A DNA stretch of 64,000 nucleotides, from positions 25,856,001 to 25,920,000 of the forward strand of contig NC_087245.1 in NCBI RefSeq assembly GCF_037042905.1, in the 5' to 3' direction. The notes below the pieces were generated by a model, which worked only from the letters and a program-made list of their open reading frames with translations, was not told the origin of the DNA and searched no databases. A program made the position numbers and the translations under genes. This DNA comes from Lytechinus pictus. Its lineage: Eukaryota. This document shows, piece after piece, positions 23,892 to 60,358 of this stretch. Numbering within the stretch: the first letter of the stretch is position 1; each line of letters opens with the position of its first letter.

Positions 23892-24609
23892 TCATAAACG
23901 AGTATTGAAGGTGCATGGTCTATATAAGATGTTATCTACCATTATTTCTCCAGAACCACCATCTTCATCAAAGAATATATCATTCGTGTCATTTTGCTTT
24001 CCCTCCTCAATTGAAGGGACTGTATTATGACGGGATGATGAAGATGCCAGACATCCTTCTTCTTGCCCATGGTGCTCAAAGCTCATCCGACACTCGTCTG
24101 TCCTCGTCTCCATGTACAAATTATCATCAGACGTTTGGTAATGATGTCCTTCAATTGCAACTTTTTGATTTGGTTTCCTGCAGTTGTTTCCACTGGCAGT
24201 CTCTTGGGCCGCGCCATGAGCCTTCATATCGTGACTTTGGATGGCAACATCCATATCTTCTGGTAGAGATAGCCCACTGCAATCCTCCGGTATCATTCCG
24301 TCAACATTACGAGTCATCGCTAGGTCGGTTCGATCAGCGTTTGTCGGAAGACATGGGAGAGGGGGTAGACTAACATCACGACGGGCCCCGATGAAGGTTC
24401 CCAGTCTACTTGGTCTGTCAATACCATCCGTTGGCAAATCACCAATTGAATTGTAAACGTGATTAATGGGACCCTCTGCAGCATAACGAATAGTGTGTTG
24501 TTCCAGGTCTTGGAAAGGACCGGTTTCTTCTTGGATCATATCAGGGTCTAAGGTAAAGTAGTCTTGAGAGGTGGAAGCAGCTTGAGATCTCAGTAGAATC
24601 TGGTTTCTT
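23892..24609 (-). CDS. Gene 1 last exon: cytoplasmic tail
   Basis: Acceptor ttttcatctttag; 246-aa ORF frame; motifs YFTL, YNSI, YMET, LPPLP, C-terminal -TRL. Confidence 0.8.
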
Positions 24610-27600
24610 CTAAAGATGAAAAGATACGACATAAATCGATAACCGTAATAATATAGTGTCTTACATGTTTCGATCTAACCTCGTTCCTTTTTTCATGTAT
24701 TTCTTCACACGTTATCTACAATCACAGAATTTGATTTAACTTTTATGCATCAATTCTTAATCATTGACCTACCTTCAGCCGTGACACCTTAGTATTTTAA
24801 TGTATTTTGAGACGGGATGAATTTAAATTACTCTTTAACGATGAGACAATCCTGCCTTGTGAAATAACTTCCGCGTTTCGATTGCTGTGAATTTGCAAAT
24901 TCTTAATCCAGCGTTTGTTTTTGTTTAAATCATTAATTTCATGTTATAAAATTTATGGTGATTGATATTCAAGACTGCAACAAAATTTTATCTTCATGAT
25001 GATCATGTAAACGGCATCAAACTTGGATGTCAAAATATCAATTTCAATTTTTCATCCATTTACGCTGCAGTAATGAAATAAAAATGAACTTTTACGCGGT
25101 TATACTTACCGCCGAAGATGATACCATTTGGTGCCAAAGACTATCATCAAGATGACCAAAGCTGCCATGAAAACTGATGAGGTTATAGTTCTAATTTCTA
25201 GAGGTAAAATAGATATTTAAATCCAATCTGAAATATACGATTGTTGCTTAGAATCTGGAAATAAGTGTATCGTAACCATGCAGTGGCGTAATGAGCCAAA
25301 AACTTTGAGGGACCCAGATAATGGCCTATTAGGCCAAATTAATTTTTGTAATGCGAGCGAGCAAAACTTTCAACAATTTTATCACAAAAATCCAATTTGT
25401 GATAGATTTTTTACATAATATTCTAAAAATAATATATTTCACCCTTCTCTTTTTCCTTTCCTCTTTTTCACTTTTCTTTTCATGGGCGTTATGGTTGCTT
25501 GATAGAAGGTGTCAGCATTAAATTCTATTAAAGGAGAATCCAGCCTTGGCCATAAAATGTTGTGTTGGGAAGGAGAAAAATAAATTAAACAGAATGGTGA
25601 AAATTTGAAAGAAATCGGACAAGCAATAAGAAAGTTATAGCTGTTTTAAACTTGAGATCGCTAATACTATATGTATATTTCAAATTGGCAACTGGGTATG
25701 TATATTATGACAAGGGACAAGGACAACTTTCCCATAGGCCATGTACTTTATTATCAGGGATTTGTGGTTTTCTCCTAAGTACCCATTCCCCTGGGGCAGT
25801 AATCTAAATATAACCCAGGTAGTATATTGTTTTATGTCCTCATGAAAGAAAAATATGATTTGAAATAAAACTTTTAGGAAAAATGACATTTTAGCTATAA
25901 TATGTATTGGAGTACATGGAAGAGTAGTCCTTGCCTTACATCACTATGACATCCCATATGCGGCCAATTTGAAGTCTCCATGGGTGTAGTGATTACCAAT
26001 ATTTACAACTTTTAAAAATTCATAACTTTCTTTTTTTTGTCCAATATTGTTCAAACTTTCACCTATCAACTTGTCTCATTTTTCTTTTCTTTATAAAAAC
26101 AAGTTTTTATTTGGGTTGGATTCCCCTTTAACAATAACCAGTTAATATAGCGAGGGTATGTAATCAATAACTGTAGGAGGATCAGAAATATTGTTAAGAG
26201 TTCAGATAGAATAGTATATTCCAAAAATCAGAACTAATTGTATTTTATATGGAAAGGTAATTCGCATTTGTTTTGCTATATATATTAATTATAATCGCTA
26301 GAGGGTATTCATTTGTCTCGCAATCTACTATGGTCAACAAGGAAATTCGTGATCACTCTCGCAAAAAGTATTCACTAGCTTTCTAGGAAATTCGTGATCA
26401 CTCTCGCAAAAAGTGTTCACTAACTTACAAGTTCACGAGCTTTCGAGTGCCGCTGCAACTCTTTATCAAGTGACGAAAATTATGTGTGTGTATTTGAGTT
26501 TTGTCAGACGTGTAGGTGTATCAATCAGATATGATTATTTACGTCTGGGACCGACGAAAATTATCTGATAACGTAGTCTATTTATACCAATCCCCATGAC
26601 CGTACGCACGAACGCGGGAACAATAGGTGGGCACTGATCCGTTGTGTGATTGGTCGGGCGTTTCACCAATCAGTGCGTCGGTGTACGGTGCGGCCGGTGA
26701 TCCGTATATGCAAATAAGCCTGAGGTATATGCAAATACGCCGCGAGTCGGCAATATGCAAATAAGACAAAATTGGCGGGCTCGCTAGTTTTCCGTGGGTG
26801 GGTGTTGACTAGCTGAGCGGTCCCTCGATCGGGGCCGGGAACGATCGGGTCGGCGTGCACTGCCAGGTAAGGGGGTATTGTGCTGTCGGATGGTTCGCAT
26901 CCAGAAATCGGGGATGTCGATCCCGCTGTCTCTGTTGAAGTAGTTAGGACAAAGACGTATACTAATAGCCTCCTTAATCCTGCGTGTATACCAATGTCTC
27001 TCTTTGGCAACGCAATGTACACCCTCCCAATCTGGGTGGTGACCAATAGTATCATGCATAGGCTCATTTGCCTATAACCTATCAAAGTACCTGGCGGACA
27101 TCCTGTCCCCTCTCACTTACTGCTCAGAACACACGGTTTCCAACTCCAGTGAATTCGCTGAATTCACATCGGAGCAGACAATTAACGAACAAGAATCCAT
27201 GATCTCTTTTGATGTAGTCTCCTTCTTCACTAACGTACCGATAGAGGGCGCATGCAGTACGGCCCTGCAACGCATGCAATCCGACCCTACATTAGCAGAA
27301 CGTACCACACTTATGCCTGAACAAATAGCCGAACTCCTGGAGTTCGTCCTCAGATCCACATATTTTCTGTACAGAGGCTCTTTCTATGAGCAAACAGAAG
27401 GAGCAGCAATGGGTAGCCCAGTCTCAGCGGTTGTGGCTAACCTATATATGGAAGGTTTTGAACAGAACGCCTTGCCCAAGTGTCCTTCCACATGCCGCCC
27501 TCGGGTGTGGAAGAGATATGTCGATGACACTTTCATAATTGTAAATAGTTCTGAAACAGACAGCCTACTCGCATGCATGAATAGCCAGCAACCGTCCATC

Positions 27601-30600
27601 CAGTTCACTCTGGAGACTGAGCGAGGGAAATTAGCATTCCTTGACACGCTAGTCCAAAGACACGACGGCGGGAAACTCTCCACCTCTGTCTACCGCAAGC
27701 CCACTCATACAGACCAATACATACCTTATGATTCCCACCACGACATATCGGTCAAGAAGGGTCTTGTTAAATGCCTGTTCGACAGAGCAGCACGTATTAT
27801 AACTCACCCATCTGAACTCCCGAAAGAAAGAGCACACATACGTGGCGCCTTATACAGCAACGGCTACCCACGCCGTTTTATCGAGAACACTTTCAAGAAG
27901 AAACATCCGCCAAGGGATCAGAAGGTTTTCAAGACTTGCACAGTCTTGCCATACATAGATGGTCTTTCACCACAACTCAAACGCCGATTAGAAGGTCACG
28001 GTATCCGAACGGTTTTCTGCTGTGCTACGAATCACGTTCATGCCCCTGGCCCCGCGATATTGCGTAGTATGCTTCGGGTGCTGAGCCTTGCGATTCTGCT
28101 TCCGGGTACCTGAAACTGGCGATCGACACACGCTCTTCCAGTGGTTAGATTTTCCGCAGTTGTTACATGTAGTGCCATAGGCTGGGCATGCCTCACGTGG
28201 ACTGCGTGCACGTTTGCCACCACAATTTGGACATTTGTTACCATGGTTACTGCTAGATGTAGTCCTTTGTCGAACTACATGTACATCTACTGATGTTGGC
28301 TACATGTTGGTCCGAACTTGGGCAAGCTGCGCCATATGCATCTGGGATGCTTCAAATGTCCTGCTTAGTTCGAGAACTTGTGTGAGACTGAGGGTCTTGC
28401 CTTTACCCAATATGTCCTTCTGGAGCTCTGGATACCTTGTACCCGCTATAAATTGCTCGATGATTCGATCCTGAAGTTCAGTCTCATCTCGAAACTCGCA
28501 ATCATACGCCTGTAGCTTGAGACGTGATACAAAGTCATCTGTACTTTCCCTCTCTTCTGCGTATACTTTTGGAGAAATAGTCTAGCCACACAAAAATTAG
28601 CTCTAGGTTTCAGCTGTGTCTCAAACTTCTCCCAAACAATAACTGGGTTCTTGCGATCATTACCCTCCAGTCCCCACGAGTTGTAGAGCTTGATGCCTGT
28701 TGCACCGGTGAAAAGGAGGATATGGTCCACCTGCTTACCCACATCAATGTTCTTGACTGAGAAAAAGAGCTCACACTGTTGATAAAAGAGCTTTATTGCG
28801 CTAGCCCTATCAGGGTCATCCCAATCCATACGGGGTGTATAATCACTCATTGTTAAATCAGCAGTCAATATCACCACCAATAATAATGCAAACGTCAAAG
28901 TCACTTTTTACTCACAGGAAAGTCTGCATGTGGGACTGTAGTGAAAAAGCACCAGTGGAATCCAATGACAGTCTGCTATGAAATTGTCTCCAAAAAACAG
29001 TTCACAAATTATTCAAAGTTCCTCATTTTGCTCAGCGGGTTCTTGAATTAGCTGCCACCATGTTATGTGGGTTAGTTTGACTCTGATATAGACTGAAATG
29101 ACGACACGGATTGAGAATTGATATACAGTTCAGGTCCAGCCAGTCTGGTTGTTAATGTGTGTATGGAGTGCCAATATCACTGTCTCAATATGTATATGTG
29201 GGTGTGAAATGAACATAACATAACATATGACACAGTCCGCAATAATGAACCTATTTAGTAATATTTATTATACTTACTTGTTTGAATTTGTGAAGATGGT
29301 GTACTGATATGCGGTAGACTTTTCCCCTGATCTTCAGATAAGAATACTAAACATTTTGAAGACAGATATAATTTCAAATGGAATAAGGTTGTTTTGAAAG
29401 TTACAACTGCAAGTCAATGATATTTTTAACATCATTAAGAATGCTATACCATAGCGGCACGAAATCTACACTTAAAATGCACCGTTATCAGAAGTTTGAA
29501 ATGGTCCTAGATGTAAATAGATTATGAACTTGCTGTCATTTCTTTTGATGGAGAATTTTGTATATATTTACATTAAATATTGGAAAGCTATTGTGTCTCT
29601 TGGTCAGAAAAATAGATATGATGTAAATAAGCTGTTCTATCATAAAGAAAAAGTCCCTTTATCATCTTTCCGAAGAAAGTTTTAATGAAATCTTTATCAT
29701 CCATTTTATTGTAAACGGTTTGTTGCTCAACAGCTATCCAAAATAAAAAGGCAGATCGTTTAAATTAGAAGTGGCTACTTAAACATTAATAATTGTAATT
29801 ATTATGCAAAAGTTCTCTGTCGAGCAGTTTCATGACACATGGGTTAAGACGTATGTCCAAAAGCAATGATACTCAGCATGATTTTTCCTCAAGAAGCGTA
29901 ACCCATTAACTGCAAAAATAAGAGCAAGATACATGACAAGGTTGCTCCTAAACTAATCAAATAAGTTTTGAGTACACATAAAATTAATCCACTTAACAGT
30001 GCTTGATTAAGCTTACCATCAAAATTAGTATTAATATATTTGAGCCCTTTAATGTACTTTGTTAAAATATTTTTTGGGCAGTTGTTCAAATGGTGTTTTT
30101 TTTAATCAATCAGTGATAGACTCACTCCTATGTAGTGTAGTTGCACTTCTGCCAAGTTATTTTATTGTTTTTAGTTGAAATTTAACACCACTTTTATGAA
30201 GAGAACTTCGCTTTTGTGTTTTCTTAGTTTGTTCATACCGAGGATTTTTCGGGTTTTTTTTTATCTGGGTTTCATTACTATATATTTAAGCGTTCTCTTA
30301 CTTGAATTCATTACCTTTCAAATACCATTTATCCACCAGCACCTCGGTTGAATTTGAATATAGTCACTGGTTTAATATTTTTCTATTAATTTGAAAAAGA
30401 AAAACATTATTAATAGTAAAGTATGACGAATACCTGTCGTAGATTTAGGTGGTGGATTCGATGAAACAAGTATTGGTTTAGTTGTTTCTTTACTTGCTGG
30501 TGATGGTGCAATTGTTCCTGTTCCATCTGATGTGTTATAAAAAATAAAACGTGTTGCTCATGTCAACAGAAATAATGGTTCTCACAAAACGTTTCTGAAA

Positions 30601-31183: not shown

Positions 31184-31226
<43 letters not shown>

Positions 31227-31327
31227 CAATGATAATGATGATGATGATGACAATGATGATGATGACAATGATAATGATAATGATGATGATGATGATAATG
31301 ATAATGATGATGATGATGATGATGACA

Positions 31328-31370
<43 letters not shown>

Positions 31371-31508: not shown

Positions 31509-34319
31509 CGATGATGATGATGATGATTGCTGGATTTTAAGCACTTTGTGCCTGAGGATACAAATCGTTGCTATTATTACCCCAGCTTGAGCTATGCTGC
31601 CATATAGGCGCTGAAGCATTCCAGAAAATTCTTCCTATCGGGTACCCATTCGACTCACCTGGGTTGAGTGCTGTGGGTACATTTCTTGCTGAAGGTAAAC
31701 ACGTCATGGCTAGAATAATAACTCTCTTTAAGACATCTTTTTACAACATTGTCTCTAGCAATTAAGGGGCAAAATGATTCCAAAACGATCCTTAAAATGA
31801 TTCCAGTATACTTCTTAGCATTCGTGTCTTCTATAAATATAAAAATGCTAACGTGATTTTTTAAAGCTAAAATTGACAATGCATTTTCAATTGGTATATA
31901 AAAAGGCTAAAGGATCAAAGCTATCAATATATCAGCTGAAGCATGATTCCCATATTTATATACATATTTTGTTGTATATCCACCTAATCATGGCAAGAGC
32001 AAATGAAATACACATTTGAGTTTATTTTCATCTTCCAAAGATTAATATTTTCAACATTTTTATCGTCAAACACTGCTCTGTAATGAATAAAGTCCGAAAA
32101 GAATAATATTGAAAATACTGTATATAAAGCGTTATTAACCTGGTTTCTTAGCAGCTCGTAGCTGGATCCAGAATCCTGATTTGGTTGTGCTAAAATCAGT
32201 GGTAAAGATCATGGTGATTGAATTGGTAGATGATATGAAGTCTCGTGATTCTAGGACCTCATTCTCCCATAATCCTGTCCAGTCTCGCCATTTTGATCCT
32301 TGATTTGAAAAGCTATCAACACCATCGCATATGTACACGTGGTCGTGCCCGGTTTCGACATCGAATGATCTTACAATAACATCAATGACGTAGCCTTCAT
32401 GGGTTCGGATATCCCATAGACGATAGTAGTTGTTTGGGTAGTTTGACGGGTTATTCATTGACCTGATCGATATCGTTCCACCTTCATTTACTTCAGTTAT
32501 ATCTGGTGGAAAATGGAAATAAGAGCATGACATTGATCAAAGTGAGGAAACATGTTGCACGTTTTTACTTTCTAGCTCAATGATATATCTAGAACAAATT
32601 ATCGTCAGCTTTCTAGACATTATTGTAAGGTATTTACAAAGATACAATATGTCTTTTAATCATCTATCTATATATGTTATGTTTATCGTCACAGACAATA
32701 CAGAATAACCAGCTATGACAAGACAATAAGACCTCTTTGGAGTTTGTAATAACTCGTTATAAATAGTCATATCAAAAATAGATTCAAATTGGTAAATCGT
32801 TATTTTTATTAAAGCAATGTACCCAATTGAAATTCAAAGCATTAGCAATTTAGCTTTGTAAAAAGTATGCAAATGATTACCGATTTATTTACCTGACATA
32901 TTGGTACACGAGACGGTTACATTGAAATTCAGTTTCCTTTGGATTCGGGAAAATGTAACACTTATCCATGCTGAATTGCTTACTGATGTCACAACACTTG
33001 GTGAATCTGACCCACTGAAGCTTGCTAACCCAGTGTAAGTTAATGGGTCCTCAAAAAGCACACCAGCTCCATCTTTTTCAGTCCCTTCACCGATGCTCAT
33101 GAAAACATAGCCGGCTTCAAAATCAAAATCTGAAGTGGAGAATCTAATTCTATGGCGAGAAGTTGTGTTGAAAATCAAAACGAAGTTTTCTTCAACGTTC
33201 CCGTCTATATCAACTGATGAAATATTGTACTGCTCATCGCCTGTAAGCCAAACATAAGCTATGAAAGAAGAATGAAATAATTGTGGATATTAAAACATTC
33301 CCTATACACATACTGTATCAAGAATGAATTTTGTAGGAATACAAATTGATAGAAATGCACAGTGCGATATGAAATCTTTCTCTTATGAGAATTTCATCAA
33401 TTCTCCTCTAACGTCGAAAATATATGTCTTTCATACAATATATTCTGTTCATCCCAGCCAATACCACATTTTTACATTCATACTTCTTCCCTTTAACCAA
33501 CATTTTATAGCTCTTTCACAAATGGAAACCGACACAGAATACTGCAGGATTATATGATATTAAAAACTGCATCAACAACGCAAAATACACGCAAACATAT
33601 TAGACGTTGCTGCACTATGATGTGTAATACGAACGAGCTTAGTTGTCAAAAGTCTATACATCGTTAATATAAACCTTTTCAATTATATGTTTTTATTGCT
33701 TTACTCAATGTTCTATCCGTAAGATAGACACGGAAGATTCGTAACAGGGAGCAATCAAGTATCAATGTATTTGAACGCTATACACTCTTAAAATGTTGGG
33801 CATCATACTGTCCACACAACAATGGGTTTTAAAAAATATCCAACTCTGGGTAGTTTTTAACCAACACTGTGTAATTTTCACCCAAAGCACACATTATTGG
33901 TTTAAAACTACCCAGAATTTGATAAAGTTTTAACCAATTGTGGACAGTATGTTACCCAACATTTTTAAGAGTGTAGAAGGGAAATAAGAAATTCATAAAT
34001 TTCGCGGTGACATAGCGAATGGGGTAAATTAACGTGCAATACTAGTCTATTAAGTAATCTTCAATAATCAGATTTAGTTTGGTATGCCTAAAATGGATAT
34101 ATTACTCTTCCTTCGCAATGTTTATTAAATAGCATGTCTTTCGCACGAGGCAAACTTCCGACTATGTAAAACATACCAAGTTCTTTTATTATTTTTATTA
34201 GGAATTCAGGAGGTATACTTATTATTGTACTTACATGACCCTGCGCCACACATTTTAAGGAGAAGTATAAGACCCCAAAAACAATAGTTGCAAAAACTAA
34301 TTCCACGGACAGAAATCAT
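23892..34319 (-). CDS. Gene 1: type I membrane protein, signal peptide + 2 CUB-like domains + S/T/P stalk + TM + ~245-aa Tyr-containing tail (7 coding exons, 588 aa)
   Basis: Exons 34319-34235, 33258-32893, 32502-32140, 30526-30434, 29331-29278, 25197-25110, 24609-23892; all GT-AG, phases 1,1,1,1,1,2; 1767 nt with no internal stop. Confidence 0.8.
25110..25197 (-). CDS. Gene 1 transmembrane exon
   Basis: tacctctag|...|gtaagt; KIRTITSSVFMAALVILMIVFGTKWYHLRR; phase 1 to phase 2, matching the last exon. Confidence 0.8.
25281..25485. mobile_element. hAT-type MITE fragment
   Basis: Begins cagtggcgtaatgagcc; reverse complement resembles ~11120-11320. Confidence 0.55.
25532..26127. mobile_element. 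Kolobok-type MITE, family K2
   Basis: TTAA at 25528-25531 and 26128-26131; TIRs aggagaatccagcc / ggttggattcccct with degenerate longer arms. Confidence 0.8.
26341..27044 (-). mobile_element. Penelope-like element, 3' segment: GIY-YIG C-terminal part, 3' region and hammerhead-like motif
   Basis: Minus frame GHHPDWEGVHCVAKERHWYTRRIKEAISIRLCPNYFNRDSG matches the PLE endonuclease C-terminus; terminal 45-bp tandem duplication at 26341-26425. Confidence 0.8.
26436..26475 (-). ncRNA. Atypical minimal hammerhead-ribozyme-like motif of a Penelope terminal repeat
   Basis: Minus strand cTTGATAAa-GAGT-tgcagcggc-ACTC-GAAAgc: stem II and GAAA present, core deviates from CUGANGA. Confidence 0.45.
27041..28017 (+). 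mobile_element. Penelope-like element reverse transcriptase segment (uninterrupted frame, inverted relative to its 3' end)
   Basis: Open frame from PIVSCIGSFAYNLSKYL through SFDVVSFFTNVP, QTEGAAMGSPVS, RYVDDTF, FLD, VYRKPTHTDQY to GIRTVF. Confidence 0.9.
28018..29232 (-). mobile_element. Gypsy-type (Mag-like) LTR retrotransposon remnant: 5' LTR, PBS and degenerate gag
   Basis: LTR 29232-29061 (TGTCAT...ATAACA); PBS TGGTGGCAGC (29060-29051, complementary to a tRNA-Leu 3' end); gag MSDYTPRMDW...VWEKFE, frameshift near 28548, ESTDDFVSRL..., an in-frame stop, then CPNCGG...CPAYGTTCNNCGKSNHWKSVC zinc knuckles. Confidence 0.85.
29278..29331 (-). CDS. Gene 1 stalk exon 2
   Basis: ttatctgaag|...|gtaagt; 54 nt, DQGKSLPHISTPSSQIQT; phase 1-1. 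Confidence 0.65.
30434..30526 (-). CDS. Gene 1 stalk exon 1 (Pro/Ser/Thr-rich)
   Basis: acacatcag|...|gtattc; 93 nt, DGTGTIAPSPASKETTKPILVSSNPPPKSTT; phase 1-1. Confidence 0.7.
31065..31526. repeat. (GAT)n microsatellite with GAC/AAT variant units
   Basis: ~460 bp of gat triplets with recurring gacaat and gataat interruptions. Confidence 0.95.
31527..31720 (-). mobile_element. 5'-truncated SINE-like element whose 3' tail runs into the microsatellite
   Basis: Minus strand contains caacccaggtgagtcgaatgggtacc (resembles a conserved SINE central motif) and ends cacaaagtgcttaaaatccagc-aatcatcatc, like LINE-derived tails ending in short repeats. Confidence 0.55.
32140..32502 (-). CDS. Gene 1 CUB domain 2 exon
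   Basis: SMNNPSNYPNNYYRLWDI...FDVETGHDHVYICDG...SSTNSITMIFTTDFSTTKSGFWIQL follows the CUB consensus; 363 nt, phase 1-1. Confidence 0.9.
32893..33258 (-). CDS. Gene 1 divergent CUB-like domain 1 exon
   Basis: ttctttcatag|...|gtaaat; 366 nt, phase 1-1; RIRFSTSDFDFEAGYVFMSIGEG...SFSGSDSPSVVTSVSNSAWISVTF. Confidence 0.85.
33783..33973. mobile_element. 191-bp palindromic EnSpm/CACTA-type MITE (also at 49571-49761 and 59401-59591)
   Basis: TA|cactcttaaaa ... ttttaagagtg|TA with paired internal arms; present in intron 1 of all three paralogues. Confidence 0.8.
34235..34319 (-). CDS. Gene 1 signal-peptide exon
   Basis: gccATG context; MISVRGISFCNYCFWGLILLLKMCGAGS then gtaagt donor, phase 1; conserved in all three copies. 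Confidence 0.8.
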
Positions 34320-34779
34320 GGCTAACAACTCTGCCAGGCAATGTTTCCTAAATGACAATAGATACGGGGCTAAAACCTAAACATCAAGCTGGTTCTTGAT
34401 ATCCTGGTGAATAACAGAAGCGAGTGACGCAATATCTTTCGCTTTCATACATGATTGTCAAGCAAGTAATTATACCAGTATACTCTTACACAAGCAATTA
34501 TACCAGTACACGTTGTTATATTTAGTCTGAAGTAAGGTGGAAAGTGAGGAACGCAAAACAGATTGCCCTAAACTGATAGTTGACATTATTTTTAATATCA
34601 CCAACATCATTATTACTCTATACTATTACTAGTATCATTACTGTTGCAGTTTTTATTCTTAGTAACCGTCGCATCGTATCCAAACGTCATCACCTTGCCG
34701 AATGTTTTAGTATATTAGCACTTACACAGTGACGGACTTAACTAGCTTTGCTATTGACAGTTTCTGAAGGGTTAGCGTG

Positions 34780-35215
34780 TTCTCTCTTACCAAGACCTAA
34801 CTCTGAACATGGTTATATTATTTATGAAGGAGTATAGAATCCATCACTTAACAGACTTTGTTTAATTTTCCAAAAATTGAAAAAAGCTCCTTTTTTTCCC
34901 TGTCAGAGAAGGAGAACAAGTGAAAGAAAATCACGTGATAAGAAGAAGTTTGCTATTTTTTTCTCGCCACCAAAAACAGTCACGTTTAATGTTTAGGGAT
35001 AGCGAGAATACACACGCTGTCTAATGATGGCGCACTTCCTTGTTGTTAAATTCCGTACAGACCAGCTTTTGAATATGTTTTTTTTTCATCGAAGTAGCAT
35101 TTAAGCCAGGAAGCACCCATCACCTCAGGGAAACGATTTACCATCCTGACACCCTCTCTCTAAAGATAAATCAGCTACTGAACAATCAATAACAACGATT
35201 CACTTCCGGAATGTA
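34780..35215 (-). promoter_or_regulatory. Candidate 5' non-coding exon / promoter region (paralogous at ~50570-51005 and ~61430-62155)
   Basis: Minus-strand donor-like g|gtaaga near 34790 and acceptor tttag just upstream of the ATG in all copies; YY1-like gatggcg (~35026) and Ets-like cacttccgga (35201-35210) retained in the diverged copy C. Motif matches only. Confidence 0.3.
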
Positions 35216-37544: not shown

Positions 37545-37725
37545 CTACTGCAATACCAATACTTATACTACTACTAATTATGTTACTACTACTACTAGGT
37601 CTACTACTACTACCATAACTACCACTAATACGACTATACGACTGCTATAACTAATATTACTAAAACTACTAATAGTATTACCACTAATACCACCACAATA
37701 TAACTGCGTGTACTACCACTATTTT
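37545..37725. repeat. Degenerate (ACT)n tract (paralogous at ~53327-53507)
   Basis: act/acc/aat triplet runs. Confidence 0.75.
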
Positions 37726-38378
37726 GACATGTCTGCTATATATTGCTATTCCTACTGGTGAAAGTGTGGAATCAAAGTAATTACTGATATTTCAAATCAT
37801 TACTATTTTCTATTAATCACGACAATGACAAAAATTCAGTCACAACTAGTATTTGACATGATTTTAATGCTGGATATGTTGAATTCATCAAGTAATTTTG
37901 CATCCGAGGAACTACTATACTTCTTACACTACGAACCCTGTTAAGTATTTGAATATAATTTCTACTCCTGCTAAGATTATAGTCATACAGCGGTGCCCAA
38001 TCAAACTGGAAATTACTCATAGGTATACATTGTATACAAACGCACAAAGTGACACTTTGCATAAAACACACCCACACAATTATTTTGATGGAGAAATTTG
38101 CATAATGAAGAAGCTATAGATATCGTTGGGGTTTGGGGGAGGTTGAAAATGAAAATATTTCTAGCAAAATAACTGTACATGCTGAGTTAATATTCTAAAA
38201 TTAGATATCCAAATTTGTCATTCCCGATTGATCCAATTTTGTCCTCTGAACTATTCCCATCGTATCCCGAGCCGCATCGTGTAAATTTGCTCTCTCATGT
38301 GTGGGGTTAGAATTTCTGATCGAGATGGTATTACTCTCTCTTAATCTACTAGGGCCTACAGACATGGCAGAGGGATTC

Positions 38379-47800: not shown

Positions 47801-50107
47801 CATAAAGTTAACCAAGGGTTTACTAAACATAAGTATTAGAATACCATTTGTTATCTACATATATCATAAAATTTTAATTAGTATACATAAGCAAGAAACA
47901 TTGTCATTAACCTGGTTTCTTAGCAGCTCGTAATTGGATCCAGAACCCTGATTTTGTTGTGCTAAAATCAGTGGTAAAGATCATGGTGATTGAATTGGTA
48001 GATGATATGAAGTCTCGTGATTCTAGGACCTCATTCTCCCATAATCCTGTCCAATCGCGCCATTTTGATCCTTGATTTGAAAAGCTATCAACACCATCGC
48101 ATATGTACACGTGGTCGTGCCCGGTTTCGACATCGAATGATCTTACAATAACTTCAATGACGTAGCCTTCATGGGTTCGGATATCCCATAGACGATAGTA
48201 GTTGTTTGGGTAGTTTGACGGATTATTCATTGACCTGATCGATATCGTTCCACCTTCATTTACTTCAGTTATATCTGGTGGAAAATGGAAATAAGAACAT
48301 GACATTGATCAAAGTAAGGAAACATGTTGCACGTTTTTACTTTCTAGCTCAATGATATATCTAGAACAAATTATCGTCAGCTTTCTAGACATTAATGTAA
48401 GGTATTTACAAAGTTACAATATGTCTTTTAATCATCTATCTATATATGTTATGTTTATCGTCACAGACAAGACAGAATAACCAGCTATGACAAGACAATA
48501 AGACCTCTTTGGAGTTTGTAATAACTCGTTATAAATAGTCATATCAAAAATAGATTCAAATTGGTAAATCGTTATTTTTATTCAAGCAATGTACCCAATT
48601 GAAATTCAAAGCATTAGCAATTTAGCTTTGTAAAAAGTATGCAAATGATTACCGATTTATTTACCTGACATATTGGTACACGAGACGGTTACATTGAAAT
48701 TCAGTTTCCTTTGGATTCGGGAAAATGTAACACTTATCCATGCTGAATTGCTTACTGATGTCACAACACTTGGTGAATCTGACCCACTAAAGCTTGCTAA
48801 CCCAGTGTAAGTTAATGGGTCCTCAAAAAGCACACCAGCTCCATCTTTTTCAGTCCCTTCACCGATGCTCATGAAAACAAAGCCGGCTTCAAAATCAAAA
48901 TCTGAAGTGGAGAATCTAATTCTATGGCGAGAAGTTGTGTTGAAAATCAAAACGAAGTCTTCTTCAACTTTCCCGTCTATATCAACTGATGAAATATTGT
49001 ACTGCTCATCGCCTGTAAGCCAAACATTAGCTATGAAAGAAGAATGAAATAATTGTGGATATTAAAACATTCCCTATACACATACTGTATTAAGAATGAA
49101 TTTTGTAGGAATACAAATTGATAGAAATGCACAGTGCGATATGAAATCTTTCTCTTATGAGAACTCATCAATTCTCCTCTAACGTCGAAAATATCTGTCT
49201 TTCATACAATATATTCTGTTCATCCCAGCCAATACCACATTTTTACATTCATACTTCTTCCCTTTTACCAACATTTTATAGCTCTTTCACAGATGGAAAC
49301 CGACACAGAATACTGCAGGATTATCGTTATACTACAATTATATGATATTAAAAACTGCATCAACAACGCAAAATACACGCAAACATATTAGACGTTGCTG
49401 CACTATGATGTGTAATACGAACGAGCTTAGTTTTCAAGAGTCTATACATCGTTAATATAAACCTTTTCAATAATATGGTTTTATTGCTTTACTCTATGTT
49501 CTATCCGTAAGATAGACACGGAAGATTCGTAGCAGAGAGCAATCAAGTATCAATGTATTTGAACGCTATACACTCTTAAAATGTTGGGCATCATACTGTC
49601 CACACAACAATGGGTTAAAAAAAATATCCAACTCTGGGTAGTTTTTAACCAACATTGTGTAATTTTCACCCAAAGCACACATTATTGGTTTAAAACTACC
49701 CAGAATTGGATAAAGTTTTAACCAATTGTGGACAGTATGTTACCCAACATTTTTAAGAGTGTAGAAGGGAAATAAGAAATTCATAAATTTCGCGGTGACA
49801 TAGTGAATGGGGTAAATGAACGTGCAATACTAGTCTATTAAGTAATCTTCAATAATCAGATTTAGTTTGGTATGCCTAAAATGGATATATTACTCTTCCT
49901 TCGCAATGTTTATTAAATAGCATGTCTCTCACACGAGGCAAACTTCCGACTATGTAAAACATACCAAGTTCTTTTATTATTTTTATTAGGAATTCAGGAG
50001 GTATACTTATTATTGTACTTACATGACCCTGCGGCACACATTTTAAGGAGAAGCATAAGACCCCCAAAACAATAGATGCAAAAACTAATTCCACGGACAG
50101 AATTCAT
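38379..50107 (-). CDS. Gene 2: type I membrane protein, signal peptide + 2 CUB-like domains + Thr/Ala-rich stalk + TM + Tyr-rich tail (6 coding exons, 509 aa)
   Basis: Exons 50107-50023, 49030-48665, 48274-47912, 40209-40096, 39575-39448, 38852-38379; GT-AG, phases 1,1,1,1,0; 1530 nt with no internal stop. Confidence 0.8.
39448..39575 (-). CDS. Gene 2 transmembrane exon
   Basis: GPLLDTLIFKWVAIISSSILLLVILTCTVLKYKRRKQTARNDT; hydrophobic run plus basic stop-transfer; phase 1 to phase 0. Confidence 0.85.
40096..40209 (-). CDS. Gene 2 mucin-like stalk exon
   Basis: aaacgtag|AAATTASAASVATTTTTSNASTTHEDPVPSTSSYIITT|gtacgt; 114 nt, phase 1-1; the paralogous exon in gene 3 is also a multiple of 3 (138 nt). 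Confidence 0.75.
42859..43129. mobile_element. hAT-type MITE nested in the 41118-47192 element
   Basis: Termini cagaagcggatctag / ctggatccgcccctg, same terminal class as 16065-16187; TSD not clean. Confidence 0.65.
43574..44413. mobile_element. 840-bp TIR element, superfamily not assigned
   Basis: Perfect 14-bp TIRs gtattaccggacac / gtgtccggtaatac plus inner inverted pair atcatgattccggacgcgc (~43776) / gcgcgtccggaatcatgat (~44380). Confidence 0.75.
47912..48274 (-). CDS. Gene 2 CUB domain 2 exon
   Basis: One amino-acid difference from the gene 1 exon (VIEVIV vs VIDVIV). Confidence 0.9.
48665..49030 (-). CDS. Gene 2 divergent CUB-like domain 1 exon
   Basis: 366 nt, phase 1-1; four amino-acid differences from gene 1 seen by eye. 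Confidence 0.85.
50023..50107 (-). CDS. Gene 2 signal-peptide exon
   Basis: MNSVRGISFCIYCFGGLMLLLKMCAAGS then gtaagt, phase 1. Confidence 0.8.
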
Positions 50108-53100
50108 GGCTAACAACTCTGCCAGGCAATGTTTCCTAAATGACAGTAAATACGGGGCTAAACACTAAACATCAAGCTGGTTCTTGATATCCTGGTGAAT
50201 AACAGAAGCGAGTGACGCAATATCTTTCGCTTTCATACATGATTGTCAAGCAAGTAATTATACCAGTATACTCTTACGCAAGCAATTATACCAGTACACG
50301 TTGTTATATTTAGTCTGAAGTAAGGTGGAAAGTGGGGAACGCAAAACAGATTGCCTTAAACTGATAGTTGATATTATTTTCAATATCACCAACATCATTA
50401 TTACTCTATACTATTACTATTATCATTACTATTGCAGTTTTTATTCTTAGTAACCGTCGCGTCGTATCCAAACGTTATCACCTTGCCGAATGTTTTAGTA
50501 TATTAGCACGTACACAGTGACGGACTTAACTAGCTTTGCTATTGACAGTTTCTGAAGGGTTAGCGTGTTCTCTCTTACCAAGACCTAACTCTGAACATGG
50601 TTATATTATTTATGAAGGAGTATAGAATCCATCACTTAACAGACTTTGTTTAATTTTCCAAAAATTGAAAAAAGCTCCTTTTTTTCCCTGTCAGAGGAGG
50701 AGAACAATTGAAAGAAGATCACGTGATAAGAAGAAGTTTGCTATTTTTTTCTCGCCACCGAAAACAGTCACGTTTAATGTTTAGGGATAGCGAGAATACA
50801 CACGCTGTCTAATGATGGCGCACTTCCTTGTTGTTAAATTCCGTATAGACCAGCTTTTGAATATGTTTTTTTATTCCATCGAAGTAGCATTTAAGCCAGG
50901 AAGCACCCATCACCTCAGGGATACGATTTACCATCCTGACACTCTCTATAAAGAAAAATCAGCCACTGAACAATTAATAACAACGATTCACTTCCGGAAT
51001 GTATATTTAATCGATGGTTCAAAATTTATTAGCATTTAATTTTTTTTTAAATCAATTTTAATGAAAAATATCTATGCTGTGTTTAATTGGTCGAGCATGA
51101 GCTGAATACAATCGTTAATGATATTTCGTTGTTTGGCAATTATGAAACCCTTCATTATTTTGGAATCCTTTGAAGTGATTCGTTGAATTGTTCGAGTTAA
51201 AAGCAATCAGTAACTTTATCCTGGATTCAAAATCCAAATACTGATTCACCAGATAATTCATTCATTATGGCAATTCTTTAGATCAGACTAGAATAGCCAT
51301 CGCTTTAACAACCAAGTAGTCAGCAATTTATCAAGATATAAACGATGGCGTGATATGGGTACCATATACCATTTCGACTTTTCTCCGGCAGGTAAAGTCT
51401 CCATGTATCGGATGTCGTCGTGCTGGGAGCACTTATGCAAGGCGAATGACAAGCCTCGATTATTGGTAACATCTTCAGATAGATAATAATAACTTCAATT
51501 TCGTATAAAAAGGTTTGTAAAATCGTTATTTATACGACGGAGAGATACGGTTTACCTCTCATATCATAGATAATAATGCTTCATACTTTTTACAAAAATA
51601 ATTCATGCATTTGGCAGGTATATTATATTCTTTTTTATCAAATCACAAATTCAATTCTCGGGTACTTCAGCTTTTTTTCATTATGCAACCTCTCTCCCTC
51701 TCATTCTCTCATCTCTCAATCGTTTCCTATCATATTTCTATGACACTCCCTTGCCATATTCTCCCCCCCCCCACCTCCCTCCTCCCCCTCCCCCTCTCTC
51801 TCTCTTGCACTAATTCAGACATACAGTATATGGAACTGCTTTTGAAGACAATCATGACAATCAAATTGCTCAACGCTGAATATTGCTGTAAAGTCTATGA
51901 CGCCCTCTTTCGTGATGCTTTAGAGGTAACTTCTGCAGATCCATACATGGTTTTAGGCAGCTGCCCCTCGCCCATTTTCAAACAAGGGAATTTTCTGTTG
52001 AATCTTGTTGTATTGTTTATCATCGTAATTTTTGTTGAATTCCCTTAAATATATATCCGATTGACTCTTCTGCACTCCTAAATGTTTACTAAATTTAAAT
52101 TTATCTTTTCTCGCTCGCACATTTTCCCCATAAAATGCACCGTATCAACTCAGCCCCCGGTAGATATTTGCCTCATTATACACCACTAAATATAATAATC
52201 TAGTACAATCTAGTAAAATTTAGTACAAATAACAACTAAACGAGAAGGTCAATTTATGATAAATTACAAAATTCTGACACATTTTGCAGTCACATATTCA
52301 CAATTGCCGCAGTAGTAGGTTGCAGTTTTAAGGGTCGTTTCGAAGCAAAAACAAAATTGGCAAATTACAAACCAATAGAATCCACAGGCTTAGAAACAAA
52401 TGTATACAATAACAGAAGTTCGATACATTTTCACCGTTTAAAAGTTGAGTATTTGGCTTCAGAAACACTCCTACCAGCCAGCCCGCTAGCCAGCCTTTAT
52501 TTCACTTTTAACGGGCCAGATGTCAGGCGTCATCTCCTCTGAGTGGAATTGTGAAAGACTGAAAGCAGTTGTTTGCATGTTGACAAATTTTGAATATTTG
52601 CTCTCTTTTTTTTGTTACATTTATGAATACGAATGATATTAAACAATATGATAATAAAAAATATCATTATCTAAAGGAAGGATTTTAGTGCTTAAAAGCA
52701 AAGTTTATAATTTATACCATATTTTGTAACTATTTGTATTTTCTGTACTTGGCTACCCTCCCCCACCTAAAATATTTGGGATGTATCAACCACCACCCCC
52801 CTTTCCCCCTTGTGATCGACAACCATGGTCGATAGCTGCGGATTTTGTAGATTTTAGGGGGGGGTTTCAAAGCAGAATGGAAATGCATTAAGAGAAGTTA
52901 GGGAGCTTTATCTGTGTTATGGGGAATAATTTTCGAGTCTCCAAAATGCAAAAATCAGCAAATAAAGGGGTCAAGATACAACAAGGGTCCAAGCTGAATA
53001 AATATTAAGTTTATCAGTCTCTAATAATAAAATCCATTATGATTTTCTCTTTTTAGTAAGTATGTATTTTATTCATTCTATTTGAAAATACATATTGCAA

Positions 53101-56100
53101 AAAATAACAAATCCAATTAGTTCATTGGGTGTTTATATGTAAATTCATTGTAATACAGCACTGTGAACAAAATAATGTGTACCCTGATAACACATGAAGA
53201 ACTAGAACTACAAAAAATGAACAGGGAAATCAAATTGAGATTTAATAACCGATACTCCTCGTCTAGGTTTGGAAGATATTCTAAGTACATATACTATATA
53301 CTGATACTAAAAATATATGCAATATACTACTGCAATACCAATACGTATACTACTACTACTTATGTTACTACTACTACTAGGTCTACTACTACTACCATAA
53401 CTACCACTAATACGACTATACGACTGCTATTACTAATATTACTAAAACTACTAATAGTATTACCACTAATACCACCACAATATAACTGCGTGTACTATCA
53501 CTACTTTGACATGTCTGCAATATATTGCTATTCCTACTGGTGAAAGTGTGGAATCAAAGTAATTACTGATATTTCAAATCATTACTATTTTCTATTAATC
53601 ACGACAATGACAAAAATTCAATCACAACTAGTATTTGACATGATTTTAATGCTGGATATGTTAAATTCATCAAGTAATTTTGCATCCGAGGAACTACTAT
53701 ACTTCTTACAGTACGAACCCTGTTAAGTATTTGAATATAATTTCTACTCCTGCTAAGATTATAGTCCTACAGCGGTGCCCAATCATACTGGAAATTACTC
53801 ATAGGTATACATTGTATACAAACGCACAAAGTGACACTTTGCATAAAACACACCCACACAATTTTTATGATGGAGAAATTTGCATAATGAAGAAGCTATA
53901 GATATCGTTGGGGTTTTGGGGAGGTTTAAAATGAAAATATTTCTAGCAAAATAACTGTACATGTACATGCTGACTTAATTTACTAAAATTAGATATCCAA
54001 ATTCGTCGTTCCCGAATGATCAAATTTTGTCCTCTGAACTATTCCCATCATATCCCGAGCCGCATCGTATAAATTTGCTCTCTCATGTGTGGGGTTATAA
54101 TTTCTGATCGAGATGGTATTACTATCTCTTAATCTACTAGGGCCTACAGACATGGCAGAGGGATTCTTAATAGCGGTTAGAAGTGTCAGTGCTGTCAATG
54201 TTATAATAATGACTCGACAATTGCTCATCCTTTTCTCCGATGCTTTTCATCGTCATCATACAACTTTCGTAGGCATGGTAGGTGTGGGGAGATCCTTGCT
54301 GACTACTAGAAAGGGATGTATCCAAGTATGTATGATTGATATCTGTATAACCATCTCGACTGACTGGGGATCGTTCATCAGGTAGTTCTCCTCCCTTGTC
54401 TCTGTCTGGAATCATGTATCCAAACTCATCTACTCGTTCATTATCAGGACCAGATGCTGGCCAATTAGAGTCTCCCACAGGACTATGGGATGGAGCTAGA
54501 AGGTATTCAGGGATAGTTTCATACGGTCTACCAGGAAGAGAATCAGGTTCAGTGGAAGATTCTTGTATTCTTTCTCCCGTAGGTTCTTCGTATTGCATGT
54601 TGTGTAGTCTCTCTGACTCGGGACCCTTTGCCGAAATGTCCTAAGAAGAAGAGTTATGGAAAACAAATATCCCGGGCAAATTGATAAAATCACTAAATTC
54701 CTCCTAAAAATATTCGGTAAATATCGTCATCATATATAGTGTGTTTCGTTGCGAAAACATGTAAACACAGACACGTGAACCAAATATAAAATTATGTAGC
54801 TTTTCTTTCTCGTTCAATTGTAGTCGGAGATAATGAAAGCATAAGAATAATTTGTGACTGATAAACATTACAGAACCAAGGAAAGATTAACAACAAATGT
54901 AATTATTCTCCTTAAACATCGATCTCTTTAATTTCGGGATTCCTTAATTAGCATTTATAAAATTTATTCGTTTCTTTCTTAAACAGTTAAATATTAATAT
55001 GCCTAAATATTACCAAACTGCAGAGATTTATCAATACTTTCTCCATCAAAATATTTAGAACTTTTTAATTTTAAAGAATGAACTTCTGAATCGTATTAGC
55101 GCACGTTATGTATGACAGTCACAGTAGCTTCGTTCTAAGTTTTACCCTACATGTTCCTTTCTAAAACATCAAAAATAAAATCGAAAAGCAATCAAATAAC
55201 AACTGTCCTATTGTAAAAAATAAAAAAATGTATCTTACCGTGTCATTACGCGTTGTCTGTTTCCGTCGTTTATATTTTAGGACCGCGCAGGTAAGAATGA
55301 CCAGAAGCAAAGTGGACGATAATATAATGGTTCCCCACTTGAAAAAAAGGGCGTCTAATAGTAGACCTAATGGGAAAAAATAAATCAAGGATTATTTATT
55401 GATAAGGTGAATGTCTGTTTGTCAGCAAAAAGCATTTAAAAAATGTACAAAAATACTTATTAAAGCAATCAAGGTTGTTTACAGTTTTATCATGTTTAGT
55501 ATTTCCATTCTACCGTATTCATCTTTATGTTACTGAAATTCTAAAATCTCTATTCGCAATGCTAGATTTTCCTTCGACATCTTGACGGAAAAATTAAGGG
55601 GGCAGTCCATTCAAATAAAGATCATACACGTAAATGAATTTGAAATTGTAATGTTGATAATGGTACTGAGAGTAAGTTTATTTTGTTTTATTTAAGTTGG
55701 AGAATGTAATAAAGACACCTGACTGATCATTGCTAGTATATACCTCAATCTTGACTTTCATTGGATTAAGTGTTTCTTTCCAAATACTACACAACTTTCA
55801 TCTAGATCATGGAGATAAGAAGTGTCAAATGAAGATTAGTGTCCCAACGCTATAGAGTTTGATGAGGTATACCATTAGATTGCATAAAATACAAAAAATA
55901 CATTCATTGGAAAGTGTAACGTACCCGTTGTAATTATATATGATGAGGTTGATGAAACAGGATCTCCGTGGGTTGTGCTTGCATTTGATGTTGTTGTTGC
56001 TGCTGCTGCCGATGTTTTTGTTGTTGCTACTGCTAATGGTGATGTTGTTGTTATTGCTGCTGCTGGGTTTGGTTTAAGAATAAAACATATTTTCATGCCA

Positions 56101-56575
56101 ACAATAGATGATGGTCCTTCCAAAACAGATAAATGATTACATATACTCTTTATTGTCTTTATTGTTGTTGTTTCAAATACTCATTAAACCTCAAATAAAA
56201 ATTATTTATCGTGTGTAATATAATGGCAGCCGTCATAATATATATTTCATTAACTCTGGTAGCCATTAACCATTGGTGTACACTTTTTACCCTCGAAATG
56301 ATATACATTCAATGAAATAAAGAAGTACCGACGGTAAGTTATTCAATTTTCATATTTACAAAGGGACATTATATAATGATTTCAACTCAAACTTAAATTT
56401 TCTAAATAATAGTCTGATTCGTCGTGCCTTATTGCAGTCACATATTCATGTTTATATTTTCTTCTTTTGTTTAAAACAGAAGACCCTGAAATCTTTACGT
56501 ATCTCTATTATACATTAGGGACAAATTTATACACAAATAATATCGATAGTACTTGAGACAGCCAATCATTCAATA

Positions 56576-57898: not shown

Positions 57899-58346
57899 TT
57901 ATTTTTGTTTTCTAGTTCCTGTATTTTTATATGAACGGTTTTAAAAATAAGGTAATAGAGAAAAGTGGTTGACGGACGGTAAAATGTTCATTATATCATG
58001 GGATTGCACTACGAGTTTAGGAACCGGTTATCATCCGTGGGAATTCGAAATGGGCTTTTAAAATTCTCATAGACTACATAATTTTGAGTCGGCTTCGTAT
58101 GTTGTCTTAGCATCTCTGGTATTTTTTATTTCTAGTTCCTGTATTTTTATATGAACGGTTTTAAAAATAAGGTAATAGAGAAAAGTGGTTGACGGACGGT
58201 AAAATGTTCATTATATCATGGGATTGCAATACAAGTTTAGGAACCGGTTATCATCCGTGGTAGTTCGAAATTGGCTTTACATCGTCACCGTGTAGCCCTG
58301 CTAACATTCAAAATGGGCTTTTAAAATTCTCAGAGACTACATAATT
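57899..58346 (+). repeat. ~220-bp tandem direct duplication
   Basis: tttctagttcctgtatttttatatgaacgg...gaaccggttatcatccgtgg at ~57909 and ~58129. Confidence 0.85.
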
Positions 58347-60358
58347 ATAATAATTCATTATGAATAGTCATATTAAAAATAGAATTAAATTGGTAAATCG
58401 TTATTTTTATGAAAACAATGTACCCAACTGAAATTCGGTGTATTAGCAATTTAGCTTTATAAAATATAATGCAAATGATTTTCGATATAATATCATTTAC
58501 CTGACATATTGGTACACGAGACGGTTACATCGAAATTCAGTTTCCTTTGCATTCGGTCAAATGTAATACTTATCCATGCTGAACTGCTTACTGATGTCAC
58601 AACACTTGGTAAATCTGATCCACTGAATCTTGCTAACTTAGTGTAAGTTGGTGGGTCATCAAAAAGCACACCAGCTCCATTTATTTCAGTCCCATCACCA
58701 ATGCTCATGAACACCGGTTTCAAAATCAAAATCTAAAATGGAGAATCTAATTCTATGGCGAGATATTGTGTTGAAAATCAAAACGAACTTTTCTTCAACG
58801 TTCCCGTCTATATCAAGTGATGAAATATTGTACTGCTCATCGCCAGTAAGCCAAACATAAGCTATGAAAGTAGAATGAAATAATTGTGGATATTAAAACA
58901 TTCCCTATACACATACTGTATTAAGAATGAATTTTGTAGGAATACAAATTAATAGAAATGCACAGTGCGATATGAAATCTTTCTCTTATGAGAACTCATC
59001 AATTCTCCTCGAACGTCGAAAATATATGTCTTTCATACAATATATTCTGTTCATCCCAGCCAATACCACATTTTTACATTCATACTTTTTCCCTTTTACC
59101 AACATTTTATAGCACTTTCACAGATGGAAACCGACACAGAATACTGCAGGATTATCGTTATACTACAATTATATGATATTAAAAACTGCATCAACAACGC
59201 AAAATACACGCAAACATAGTAGACGTTGCTGCACTATGATGTGTAATTCGAACGAGCTTAGTTTTCAAGAGTCTATACATCGTTAATATAAACCTTTTCA
59301 ATTATATGTTTTTATTGATTTACTCAATGTTCTATCCGTAAAATAGACACGCAAAATCGCAACAGGGAGCAATCAAGTATCAATGTATTTGAACGCCATA
59401 CACTCTTAAAATGTTGAGCAACATACTGTCCACACAACAATGTGTTTTAAAAAATATCAAACTCTGGGTAGTTTTTAACCAAGACTGTGTAGTTTTCACC
59501 CAAAGCACACATTATTGGTTTTAAACTACCCAGAATTGGATAAAGTTTTAACCAATTGTAGACAATATGTTGCCCAACATTTTTAAGAGTGTAGAAAGGA
59601 AATAAGACATTCATAAATTTCGCGGTGACATAGTGAATGGGGTAAATGAACGTGCAATACTAGTCTATTAAGTAATCTTCAATAATCAGATTTAGTTTGG
59701 TATGCCTAAAATGGATATATTACTCTTCCTTCGCAATATTTATTAAATAGCATGTCTTTGGCACGAGGCAAACTTCCGACTATGTAAAACATACCAAGTT
59801 GTTTTATTATTTTTATTAGGAATTCAGGAGGTATACTTATTATTGTACTTACATGACCCTGCGCCACACATTTTAAGGAGAAGTATAAGACCCCCAAAAC
59901 AATAGATGCAAAAACTAATTCCACGTTTAGAAATCATGGCTAACAACTCTGCTCGGCAAAAGTTTCCTAAATTGCAATAAAATAAATCTAACAACTAAAC
60001 ATCAAGCTGGTTCTTGATATCCTGGTGAATAACAGAAGCGAGTGACGCAGTATCTTTCGCTTTCATACATGATTGTTAAGCAAGAAATTATACCAGTTTA
60101 CTCATAAGCAAGTAATTATACCAGTATACACTTTGTTATTTTAAGTCTGAAGTAATGTCGAAAGTGAGGAACGTAGGCTACAACATATTGCTTTAAACTG
60201 ATATTATTTTCACTATCACCAACATCATATTACTCTCATTACTATTATTATCATCATTTAAAGTGTTGCAGTTTTTATTCGTAGTAGCCGTTGTGTCCAA
60301 ACGTTATCACTTTGCCAAATGTTATAGTATATTAGCTTTTACACAATGAGGGACTTAA

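Follow-up and report, generated by a model that had tools for sequence, protein, structure and literature searches.

How do two receptor genes come to carry nearly the same ectodomain in front of tails that cannot be aligned with each other? This question is raised by a 64,000-nucleotide stretch of the sea urchin Lytechinus pictus genome (assembly GCF_037042905.1, contig NC_087245.1, positions 25,856,001 to 25,920,000; the whole stretch is called the window below), whose minus strand holds three CUB-receptor genes in a head-to-tail array within 36 kb. An earlier note on this DNA had proposed an invertebrate paired-receptor family in which one ligand specificity drives two different intracellular outputs. 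Here, we show that genes 1 and 2 have near-identical CUB ectodomains because of a recent recombination tract of about 7.2 kb. We consider it moderately probable that these genes form a small tandem family in sea urchins, encoding type I surface receptors of the non-catalytic kind, and that ectodomain exons are swapped in it between two old modules, A and B, each consisting of a transmembrane (TM) segment plus a tail.

Results

Two intact genes and one broken copy

Gene 1 has seven exons encoding 593 amino acids and gene 2 six exons encoding 509 amino acids without stops, which bears out the earlier statement that both splice into intact open reading frames. The spliced proteins equal the RefSeq L. 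pictus models P0013 (gene 1, letter for letter) and P0002 (gene 2), which are predictions themselves, so that the match is not independent proof of splicing. All introns of both genes are of the GT-AG type, and all exons lie on the minus strand (Table 1). Common to the two genes is a layout of signal peptide, CUB1, CUB2, Ser/Thr/Pro-rich stalk, one hydrophobic stretch (the putative TM segment), and a long tail with Tyr motifs. The gene models also confirm the structural difference noticed before: gene 1 has two stalk exons, and its TM intron is of phase 2; gene 2 has a single stalk exon, and its TM intron is of phase 0. A 24-nt candidate micro-exon of gene 1 (29506-29483) was discarded in favor of a 69-nt exon, which matches P0013, and no hidden copy of stalk A was found in the gene 2 intron.

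Gene 3 is a broken B-type copy, in which CUB1 is frameshifted and the CUB2 exon is absent, while stalk, TM segment, and tail B are still open and the stalk acceptor is intact at 56062. If its CUB1 exon were skipped, the signal exon would be spliced to stalk B without a change of frame (phases 1-1), and the product would be a CUB-less receptor. Searches with tblastn over the flanking DNA, 30 kb above the window and 20 kb below it, revealed no further family members. The genome-wide look for each tail that the earlier note had suggested gave one match to tail A and two to tail B in the 811.7-Mb genome, counts to be read as lower bounds. At least one distant CUB1-CUB2 paralog lies in the genome, at C1:14.31 Mb (CUB1 37%, CUB2 47%).

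A recent tract and a proposed crossover between the genes

The CUB exons of genes 1 and 2 differ at 13 of 729 nt and in five residues, four in CUB1 and one in CUB2, precisely the number that the earlier note had estimated; the signal exon adds five further residue differences. This likeness is part of a repeat with two tiers of divergence. In the recent tract (Table 1), 146 substitutions were counted in 7213 aligned bases (2.0%), and in the adjoining older homology 126 in 1129 (11.2%). The full repeat (32131-40510/47903-56359) is not a whole-gene duplicate: it extends from the stalk of the upstream gene across the gene boundary and reaches CUB2 of the gene that follows. Homology ends 9 nt beyond the CUB2 donor, and the introns are unrelated from the 10th base. 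Of the eight CUB2 differences between genes 1 and 2, four lie in the final 44 nt of the 363-nt exon (P = 0.01). In the signal-CUB1 region, it is gene 3 that deviates from the other two genes at 127 of 169 variable sites.

Most simply, these patterns would reflect a single unequal crossover, in which an A gene recombined with a B gene just ahead of the last 44 nt of CUB2, where half of the CUB2 differences lie. Gene 2 would then be a chimera, carrying the promoter and upstream DNA, signal exon, and both CUBs of gene 1 on a B tail. The data would be equally compatible with gene conversion over 7 kb in a three-gene array of older origin. All ectodomain exons are phase 1-1, and exchanges therefore stay in frame.

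Probable ectodomain exchange in other sea urchins

A search with CUB2 recovered 10 proteins among 113 candidates. Outside Lytechinus, P0009 combines a CUB with TM-A and tail A, its tail being 40% identical to that of gene 1 over 246 columns, and P0010 of Strongylocentrotus purpuratus combines a CUB with a TM segment resembling TM-B. The CUB2 domains of P0009 and P0010 are 90% alike, versus 72% (P0009) and 66-67% (P0010) with CUB2 of the window. Trees were computed for the seven proteins with both CUB2 and a TM segment, leaving out P0001, P0003, P0005, and P0007 (no TM segment), gene 3, and the distant paralog. The CUB2 tree is split by genus with support of 100/100, and an A-type clade is rejected (approximately unbiased test, P = 1.6e-52, 7 rows). 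The TM tree is split by tail class with support of 96/94, and a Lytechinus clade is rejected with P = 0.029 on 37 columns with long branches. Within-class TM alignment scores were reached by 0 of 1000 shuffles and the four cross-class scores by 76 to 150 of 1000. Because CUB2 groups by genus while the TM exons group by tail class, ectodomain exchange between A and B genes appears to be recurrent.

Evidence of tail A beyond Lytechinus comes from P0009 and a Logan cluster (P0012 and P0014-P0017). Among longer proteins tail A had no match in 899 candidates, a weak blank, since the true relative P0009 exists. In L. variegatus, the B-tailed models P0004 and P0008 carry a homolog of the "A" stalk exon of gene 1, joined to TM-B and tail B, and the gene 1 stalk exon is thus not tied to tail A.

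CUB1 exists in several types. It is 55-60% like that of the window in P0003 (L. pictus) and in the B-tailed P0004 and P0006 (L. variegatus), and 74-79% in P0005 (L. pictus) and P0007 (L. variegatus). The second half of CUB1 in P0005 is 90% like that of P0007 and 74% like that of the window; CUB1 types cross the species line. P0011, an earlier version of the gene 1 record, is 94% identical to it in TM segment and tail. P0005 ends in stalk-A-like sequence and may be the ectodomain of P0011. Ectodomain sharing is not fixed; which CUB1 sits on which tail seems to depend on the haplotype.

A variable CUB1 and an apparently constrained CUB2

The CUB identity given in the earlier note was borne out by profile for CUB2, which matches Pfam PF00431 with E = 5.7e-11 and 43.2 bits. 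CUB1 stays under the cut-off of 21.4 bits (E = 0.026, 15.3 bits), although its predicted structure in the ESM Atlas resembles CUB models with TM-scores of 0.74-0.77. The acidic CUB2 residues E200, D204, and D253 are invariant in the 10-sequence alignment A1. E200 and D253 align with acidic residues of C1s CUB1, and the usual Tyr before the Asp is replaced by His. Two of these three acidic residues are missing from CUB1. A Glu/Asp/Asp triad is the signature of the calcium-binding CUB subset.

Between genes 1 and 2, nine of ten substitutions in signal exon plus CUB1 replace a residue, compared with one of eight in CUB2 (Fisher P = 0.003); for CUB1 alone, the share is four of five (P = 0.03). From this difference in replacement share, CUB1 looks like a variable recognition domain and CUB2 like a constrained one.

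The CUB domains of the family, including both of gene 1, hold 0-2 cysteines each and therefore lack the usual disulfide pairs. P0001 has four CUB domains (CUB1-CUB2 twice) and no TM segment, by internal duplication or by two adjoining genes merged by the predictor. The top feature match of the gene 1 protein in the ESM Atlas was a 431-amino-acid CUB cluster, mostly molluscan (0.94, 187 shared features); molluscs could possibly have similar receptors.

Two tails with different tyrosine motifs

Tails A and B do not align (their score of 29 was reached by 277 of 300 shuffles), and no Pfam domain was found in either, PF00431 being the only Pfam match in P0013. In an AlphaFold model of P0002 (10-row alignment, mean pLDDT 40), tail B is predicted, at low confidence, to be unstructured. 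Tail A keeps five of its six Tyr across genera (P = 0.04 at 40% background), and its motifs are YFTL, YNSI, NLYM, and a terminal DNILY of the NxxY type. All five B tails contain YETI, GYMxP (YxxP type), GY[TS]DI, and HTYLD, and four of the five HYYN (YxN type).

No immunoreceptor tyrosine-based activation motif (ITAM) or switch motif (ITSM) was present in the nine tails scanned. A permissive match to the inhibitory motif (ITIM), SHYYNI, was found in three of the five B tails and in none of the four A tails; it fails the stricter I/L/V-x-Y-x-x-I/L/V consensus (PMC12582321). Reading DEFGY and DGYTDI as hemITAMs was rejected, as both miss the three-acid xYxxL consensus given in that article. No activating features were read from the sequence: there is no short-tailed member, both tails exceed 150 amino acids, and neither hydrophobic stretch has a charged residue inside, the Lys of TM-B lying at its outer edge. 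YxxP motifs are used by DCBLD for CRK/CRKL (PMC6029619). With no ITAM or ITSM, a single permissive ITIM confined to three B tails, and NxxY, YxxP, and YxN motifs in place, tails A and B are probably docking scaffolds of the CDCP1/DCBLD kind with different partners and not an on/off pair. By established preferences of Src homology 2 (SH2) and phosphotyrosine-binding (PTB) domains, NxxY motifs suit PTB adaptors and YxN motifs Grb2-type adaptors.

The distant paralog (G000:C1:14310985-14318949) comprises CUB1, CUB2, a TM exon, and a third Tyr-rich tail of 339 amino acids. That tail has the short words DEFGY and HTYL in common with tail B, with an alignment not beyond chance. A common ancestry of the three tails was unsupported, the scores being reached by 50 to 207 of 300 shuffles.

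Transcripts

Four of eight listed RNA runs, all bulk runs of very low depth, were mapped on 23300-40400, the raw runs being read to about 6%. A contig of run X2 (record 14; 2701 nt, depth 2) contains CUB1 with 3 differences, CUB2 with 15, an unlisted middle of about 270 nt, and tail B plus untranslated region (UTR) with 5 differences, a span over which genes 2 and 3 differ at 42 positions. It is a spliced transcript of the CUB-CUB-tail B type; it stems from another haplotype, and its CUB1 once more resembles that of gene 1. Three pieces of run X1 match the tail/UTR of gene 2 with 0 differences, over spans holding 14 differences between genes 2 and 3. Run X4 left strand-consistent traces on the bins of the CUBs, of stalk A (with about 23 read letters), and of tail A. 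In run X5, the tail A bin received about 1090 read letters while the CUB bins stayed empty, a pattern that would fit a divergent allele but proves nothing. Of the CUB-to-tail joins that the earlier note wanted confirmed by RNA, a link to tail B is carried by the X2 contig; none of the junctions listed in the four runs belongs to gene 1.

Feature coordinates and other elements in the window

Table 1. Features of the CUB-receptor locus (positions count from the first base of the window)
Feature	Position	Strand	Remarks
Gene 1 signal-peptide exon	34235..34319	-	ATG at 34319; phase-1 donor; model P0013
Gene 1 CUB1 exon	32893..33258	-	degenerate, variable, membrane-distal CUB; phase 1-1; X2 contig matches with 3 differences
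Gene 1 CUB2 exon	32140..32502	-	phase 1-1; E200, D204, D253 invariant in family
Gene 1 stalk exon A1	30434..30526	-	Ser/Thr/Pro-rich; homologs in B-tailed L. variegatus models
Gene 1 stalk exon A2	29278..29346	-	69 nt; phase 1-1; in P0013; no read junction among those listed
Gene 1 TM-A exon	25110..25197	-	phase-2 donor
Gene 1 tail A exon	23892..24609	-	about 238 amino acids; 6 Tyr, of which P0009/P0012 retain 5; stranded reads at low depth in X4, X5
Gene 2 signal-peptide exon	50023..50107	-	model P0002
Gene 2 CUB1 exon	48665..49030	-	361/366 nt identical to gene 1
Gene 2 CUB2 exon	47912..48274	-	355/363 nt identical to gene 1
Gene 2 stalk B exon	40096..40209	-	Ala/Thr repeat-rich
Gene 2 TM-B exon	39448..39575	-	phase-0 donor
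Gene 2 tail B exon and 3' UTR	37273..38852	-	coding 38852-38379, stop at 38379; contigs of X1 and X2
Gene 3 signal-peptide exon	59853..59937	-	
Gene 3 CUB1 exon	58501..58861	-	frameshift from 5-nt gap near 58713
Gene 3 stalk B, TM-B, tail B	56062-55925, 55366-55239, 54640-54167	-	open frame; no transcript of gene 3 type seen
Recent tract, copy 1	32140..39362		tail B, UTR, intergenic DNA, signal exon, CUB1, CUB2
Recent tract, copy 2	47912..55150		counterpart of 32140..39362
Older homology	39363..40510		stalk B, TM-B, introns; aligned to 55151-56359

Retroelement remains occupy 26663-28907 in the last stalk intron of gene 1, with a reverse-transcriptase frame on the plus strand (27043-28113; PF00078, E = 1.6e-8) and gag-like frames on the minus strand that have no Pfam match. 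Degenerate tandem arrays on a CAACGTTG core lie at 41205-42361 and 46026-47132, at both ends of the 7.7-kb intron of gene 2, and are possibly the ends of a foldback-like element; gene 3 is without this array stretch as well as without CUB2. The intron after CUB2 of gene 1 contains an (ATG/ATC)n repeat of about 450 bases (31073-31527). In a gene 3 intron, a repeat-flanked insert (57039-57700) includes a short C2H2-like frame (57124-57411) with no Pfam match.

Discussion

We propose that the TM-plus-tail modules A and B were retained while a pool of ectodomain exons, comprising CUB1 types, CUB2, and stalk exons, was repeatedly exchanged between them by non-allelic recombination. The latest such event in this haplotype would be an unequal crossover close to the 3' end of CUB2, by which the upstream DNA and ectodomain of gene 1 came to precede a B tail. 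At the protein level, the distal CUB1 would set specificity and the acidic triad of CUB2 may bind calcium. A ligand would cluster the receptor, a Src-family kinase would phosphorylate the disordered tail, and tails A and B could recruit different SH2/PTB adaptors, so that outputs would differ in kind, not necessarily in sign. Considering the polymorphism of CUB1, the role is most likely non-self or cell-surface recognition, with a possible immune function; fertilization or adhesion are possible too. In a bolder version, which we regard as doubtful, the genes are an echinoderm paired-receptor system in which ancient polymorphic CUB1 specificities are shuffled between two unrelated phosphotyrosine tails, such that the wiring between ligand and output differs from animal to animal by inheritance, an arrangement kept by pathogens or by gamete or self recognition. 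If this were true, CUB would be a third paired-receptor scaffold besides immunoglobulin (Ig) and C-type lectin, working without ITIM/ITAM adaptors.

A very recent recombination in this haplotype produced the 98% identity of the two ectodomains, and the CUB1 domains of other Lytechinus models are only 55-79% like that of the window. One ligand specificity with two outputs, as envisaged in the earlier note, is thus at best haplotype-dependent. A number of observations weigh against the exchange of ectodomains as a functional device. Substitution counts are small, short Tyr motifs arise by chance, and the docking sites in the tails are predictions from sequence. The cross-genus case consists of two predicted non-Lytechinus models, P0009 and P0010, the latter ending soon after the TM segment; tail B was not found outside Lytechinus (four matches among 417 candidates), nor was an A-tailed L. 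variegatus protein seen in protein searches. To these comes the blank for gene 1 junctions in the four runs, and tail B appeared in X1/X2 and tail A in X4/X5, different runs that, at low depth, do not favor co-expression. Alternatively, A and B may be ordinary diverged paralogs, adhesion or developmental scaffolds, in a recombination-prone array that homogenizes shared exons, gene 2 being an unselected chimera. The 2% tract also spans tail B, UTR, and intergenic DNA and is thus not aimed at the ectodomain, and the neighboring gene 3 has already lost its integrity. Between genes 2 and 3, tail B shows 11 replacement and 2 silent changes, as if no constraint acted between the copies, and the expression seen is very low. 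However, the two TM classes were kept across genera even as CUB2 was overwritten, CUB1 types with 55-60% likeness exist side by side and are common to two species, and a second, different CUB1-CUB2-tail B combination (15 CUB2 differences) is transcribed in X2; such a neutral by-product is therefore an explanation that we take seriously and hold to be unlikely.

A classical pair, in which an inhibitory and an activating receptor bind the same ligand on the same cell, appears improbable. It would agree with an evolutionary signature like that of Siglec-5/14 and Siglec-11/16 (PMC4042635, PMC5701461), with the permissive SHYYNI at the end of tail B, and with about 3 kb of upstream DNA common to genes 1 and 2 at 2% divergence, from which shared control is predicted. 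Neither ITAM nor ITSM occurs in the nine tails, though, SHYYNI fails the stricter consensus and is absent from A tails, a short-tailed member and charged residues inside the hydrophobic stretches are lacking, and CUB1 is not shared in other haplotypes. That the copies are two haplotypes joined in tandem by the assembly, with one CUB-tail link unreal, is very improbable. The uniform 2% over 7.2 kb lies in the range expected of sea urchin alleles, but the introns that follow CUB2 in the two genes share no homology from their 10th base on. Moreover, CUB-tail B occurs in the spliced contig and three L. variegatus models and CUB-TM-A-tail A in P0009, so that an artefact could alter copy number and not remove either link.

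How far the exchange family resembles paired receptors can be told from its features. The genes are closely linked (three in 36 kb), their ectodomains are similar in this haplotype only (five residues over both CUBs), and the ectodomain is homogenized with TM segment and tail distinct, a pattern whose non-Lytechinus side rests on two models; an activating member (ITAM, or short tail plus charged TM segment) was looked for and not found. The family thus seems to evolve like paired receptors, and we do not class it as one because the activating-member feature, a defining one, is missing and a shared ligand and opposite sign are hypothetical. The earlier proposal of a paired-receptor family is partly supported, by the similar ectodomains on two old, unrelated TM-plus-tail modules, with CUB2 sorted by genus and TM segments by class. 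As for its novelty, no description was found in the full-text literature searched, which lacks most subscription papers, and six gene or protein identifiers led to no paper; as far as searched, the family is undescribed.

Among known systems, the closest evolutionary parallel is offered by primate Siglec-5/14 and Siglec-11/16, adjacent genes whose ectodomain exons are homogenized per species by recurrent conversion while TM segment and tail stay distinct, and of which fusion and null alleles segregate (PMC4042635, PMC5701461). The urchin family differs in having CUB instead of Ig domains, a distal domain that also comes in deeply diverged types, and two long, Tyr-bearing, non-homologous tails without an ITIM-versus-DAP12 contrast. 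In architecture, it resembles vertebrate CDCP1 and DCBLD1/2, with a CUB ectodomain, a single TM segment, and a non-catalytic tail with Tyr docking motifs, CDCP1 being phosphorylated by Src kinases (PMC4395315). CDCP1 and DCBLD were also among the feature neighbors at 0.87, which is a lead only. Domain sets differ, as P0013 contains no CDCP1-specific CUB profiles, LCCL, or F5/8 domains, and no tail homology was seen, the tails being likened by motif and not by a homology test. CDCP1 and DCBLD genes are not known as tandem, recombining pairs.

Botryllus FF/FcoR and Hydractinia Alr are likewise clustered, polymorphic single-pass invertebrate receptors with Tyr motifs and intergenic recombination or exon shuffling. 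They are Ig-based, number dozens of genes, carry canonical ITIM, ITAM, or hemITAM motifs, and are tied to allorecognition, whereas the urchin family has three genes, CUB domains, and no canonical motif. In Biomphalaria PTC2, too, single-pass TM genes are clustered; its haplotypes diverge in structure and by indels the size of genes, and its orthologs are highly polymorphic (PMC7494358). PTC2 is linked by association to parasite resistance. A review assigns paired receptors chiefly to the C-type lectin and Ig families (PMC13358205). A CUB-based family with their signature would show that this logic arises on other scaffolds and without vertebrate adaptors. Its three-gene locus, in a species used for genetics, allows a test of whether ectodomain homogenization is selected or tolerated, and if it proved neutral, the locus would still be a clean example of in-frame receptor chimeras arising from one crossover.

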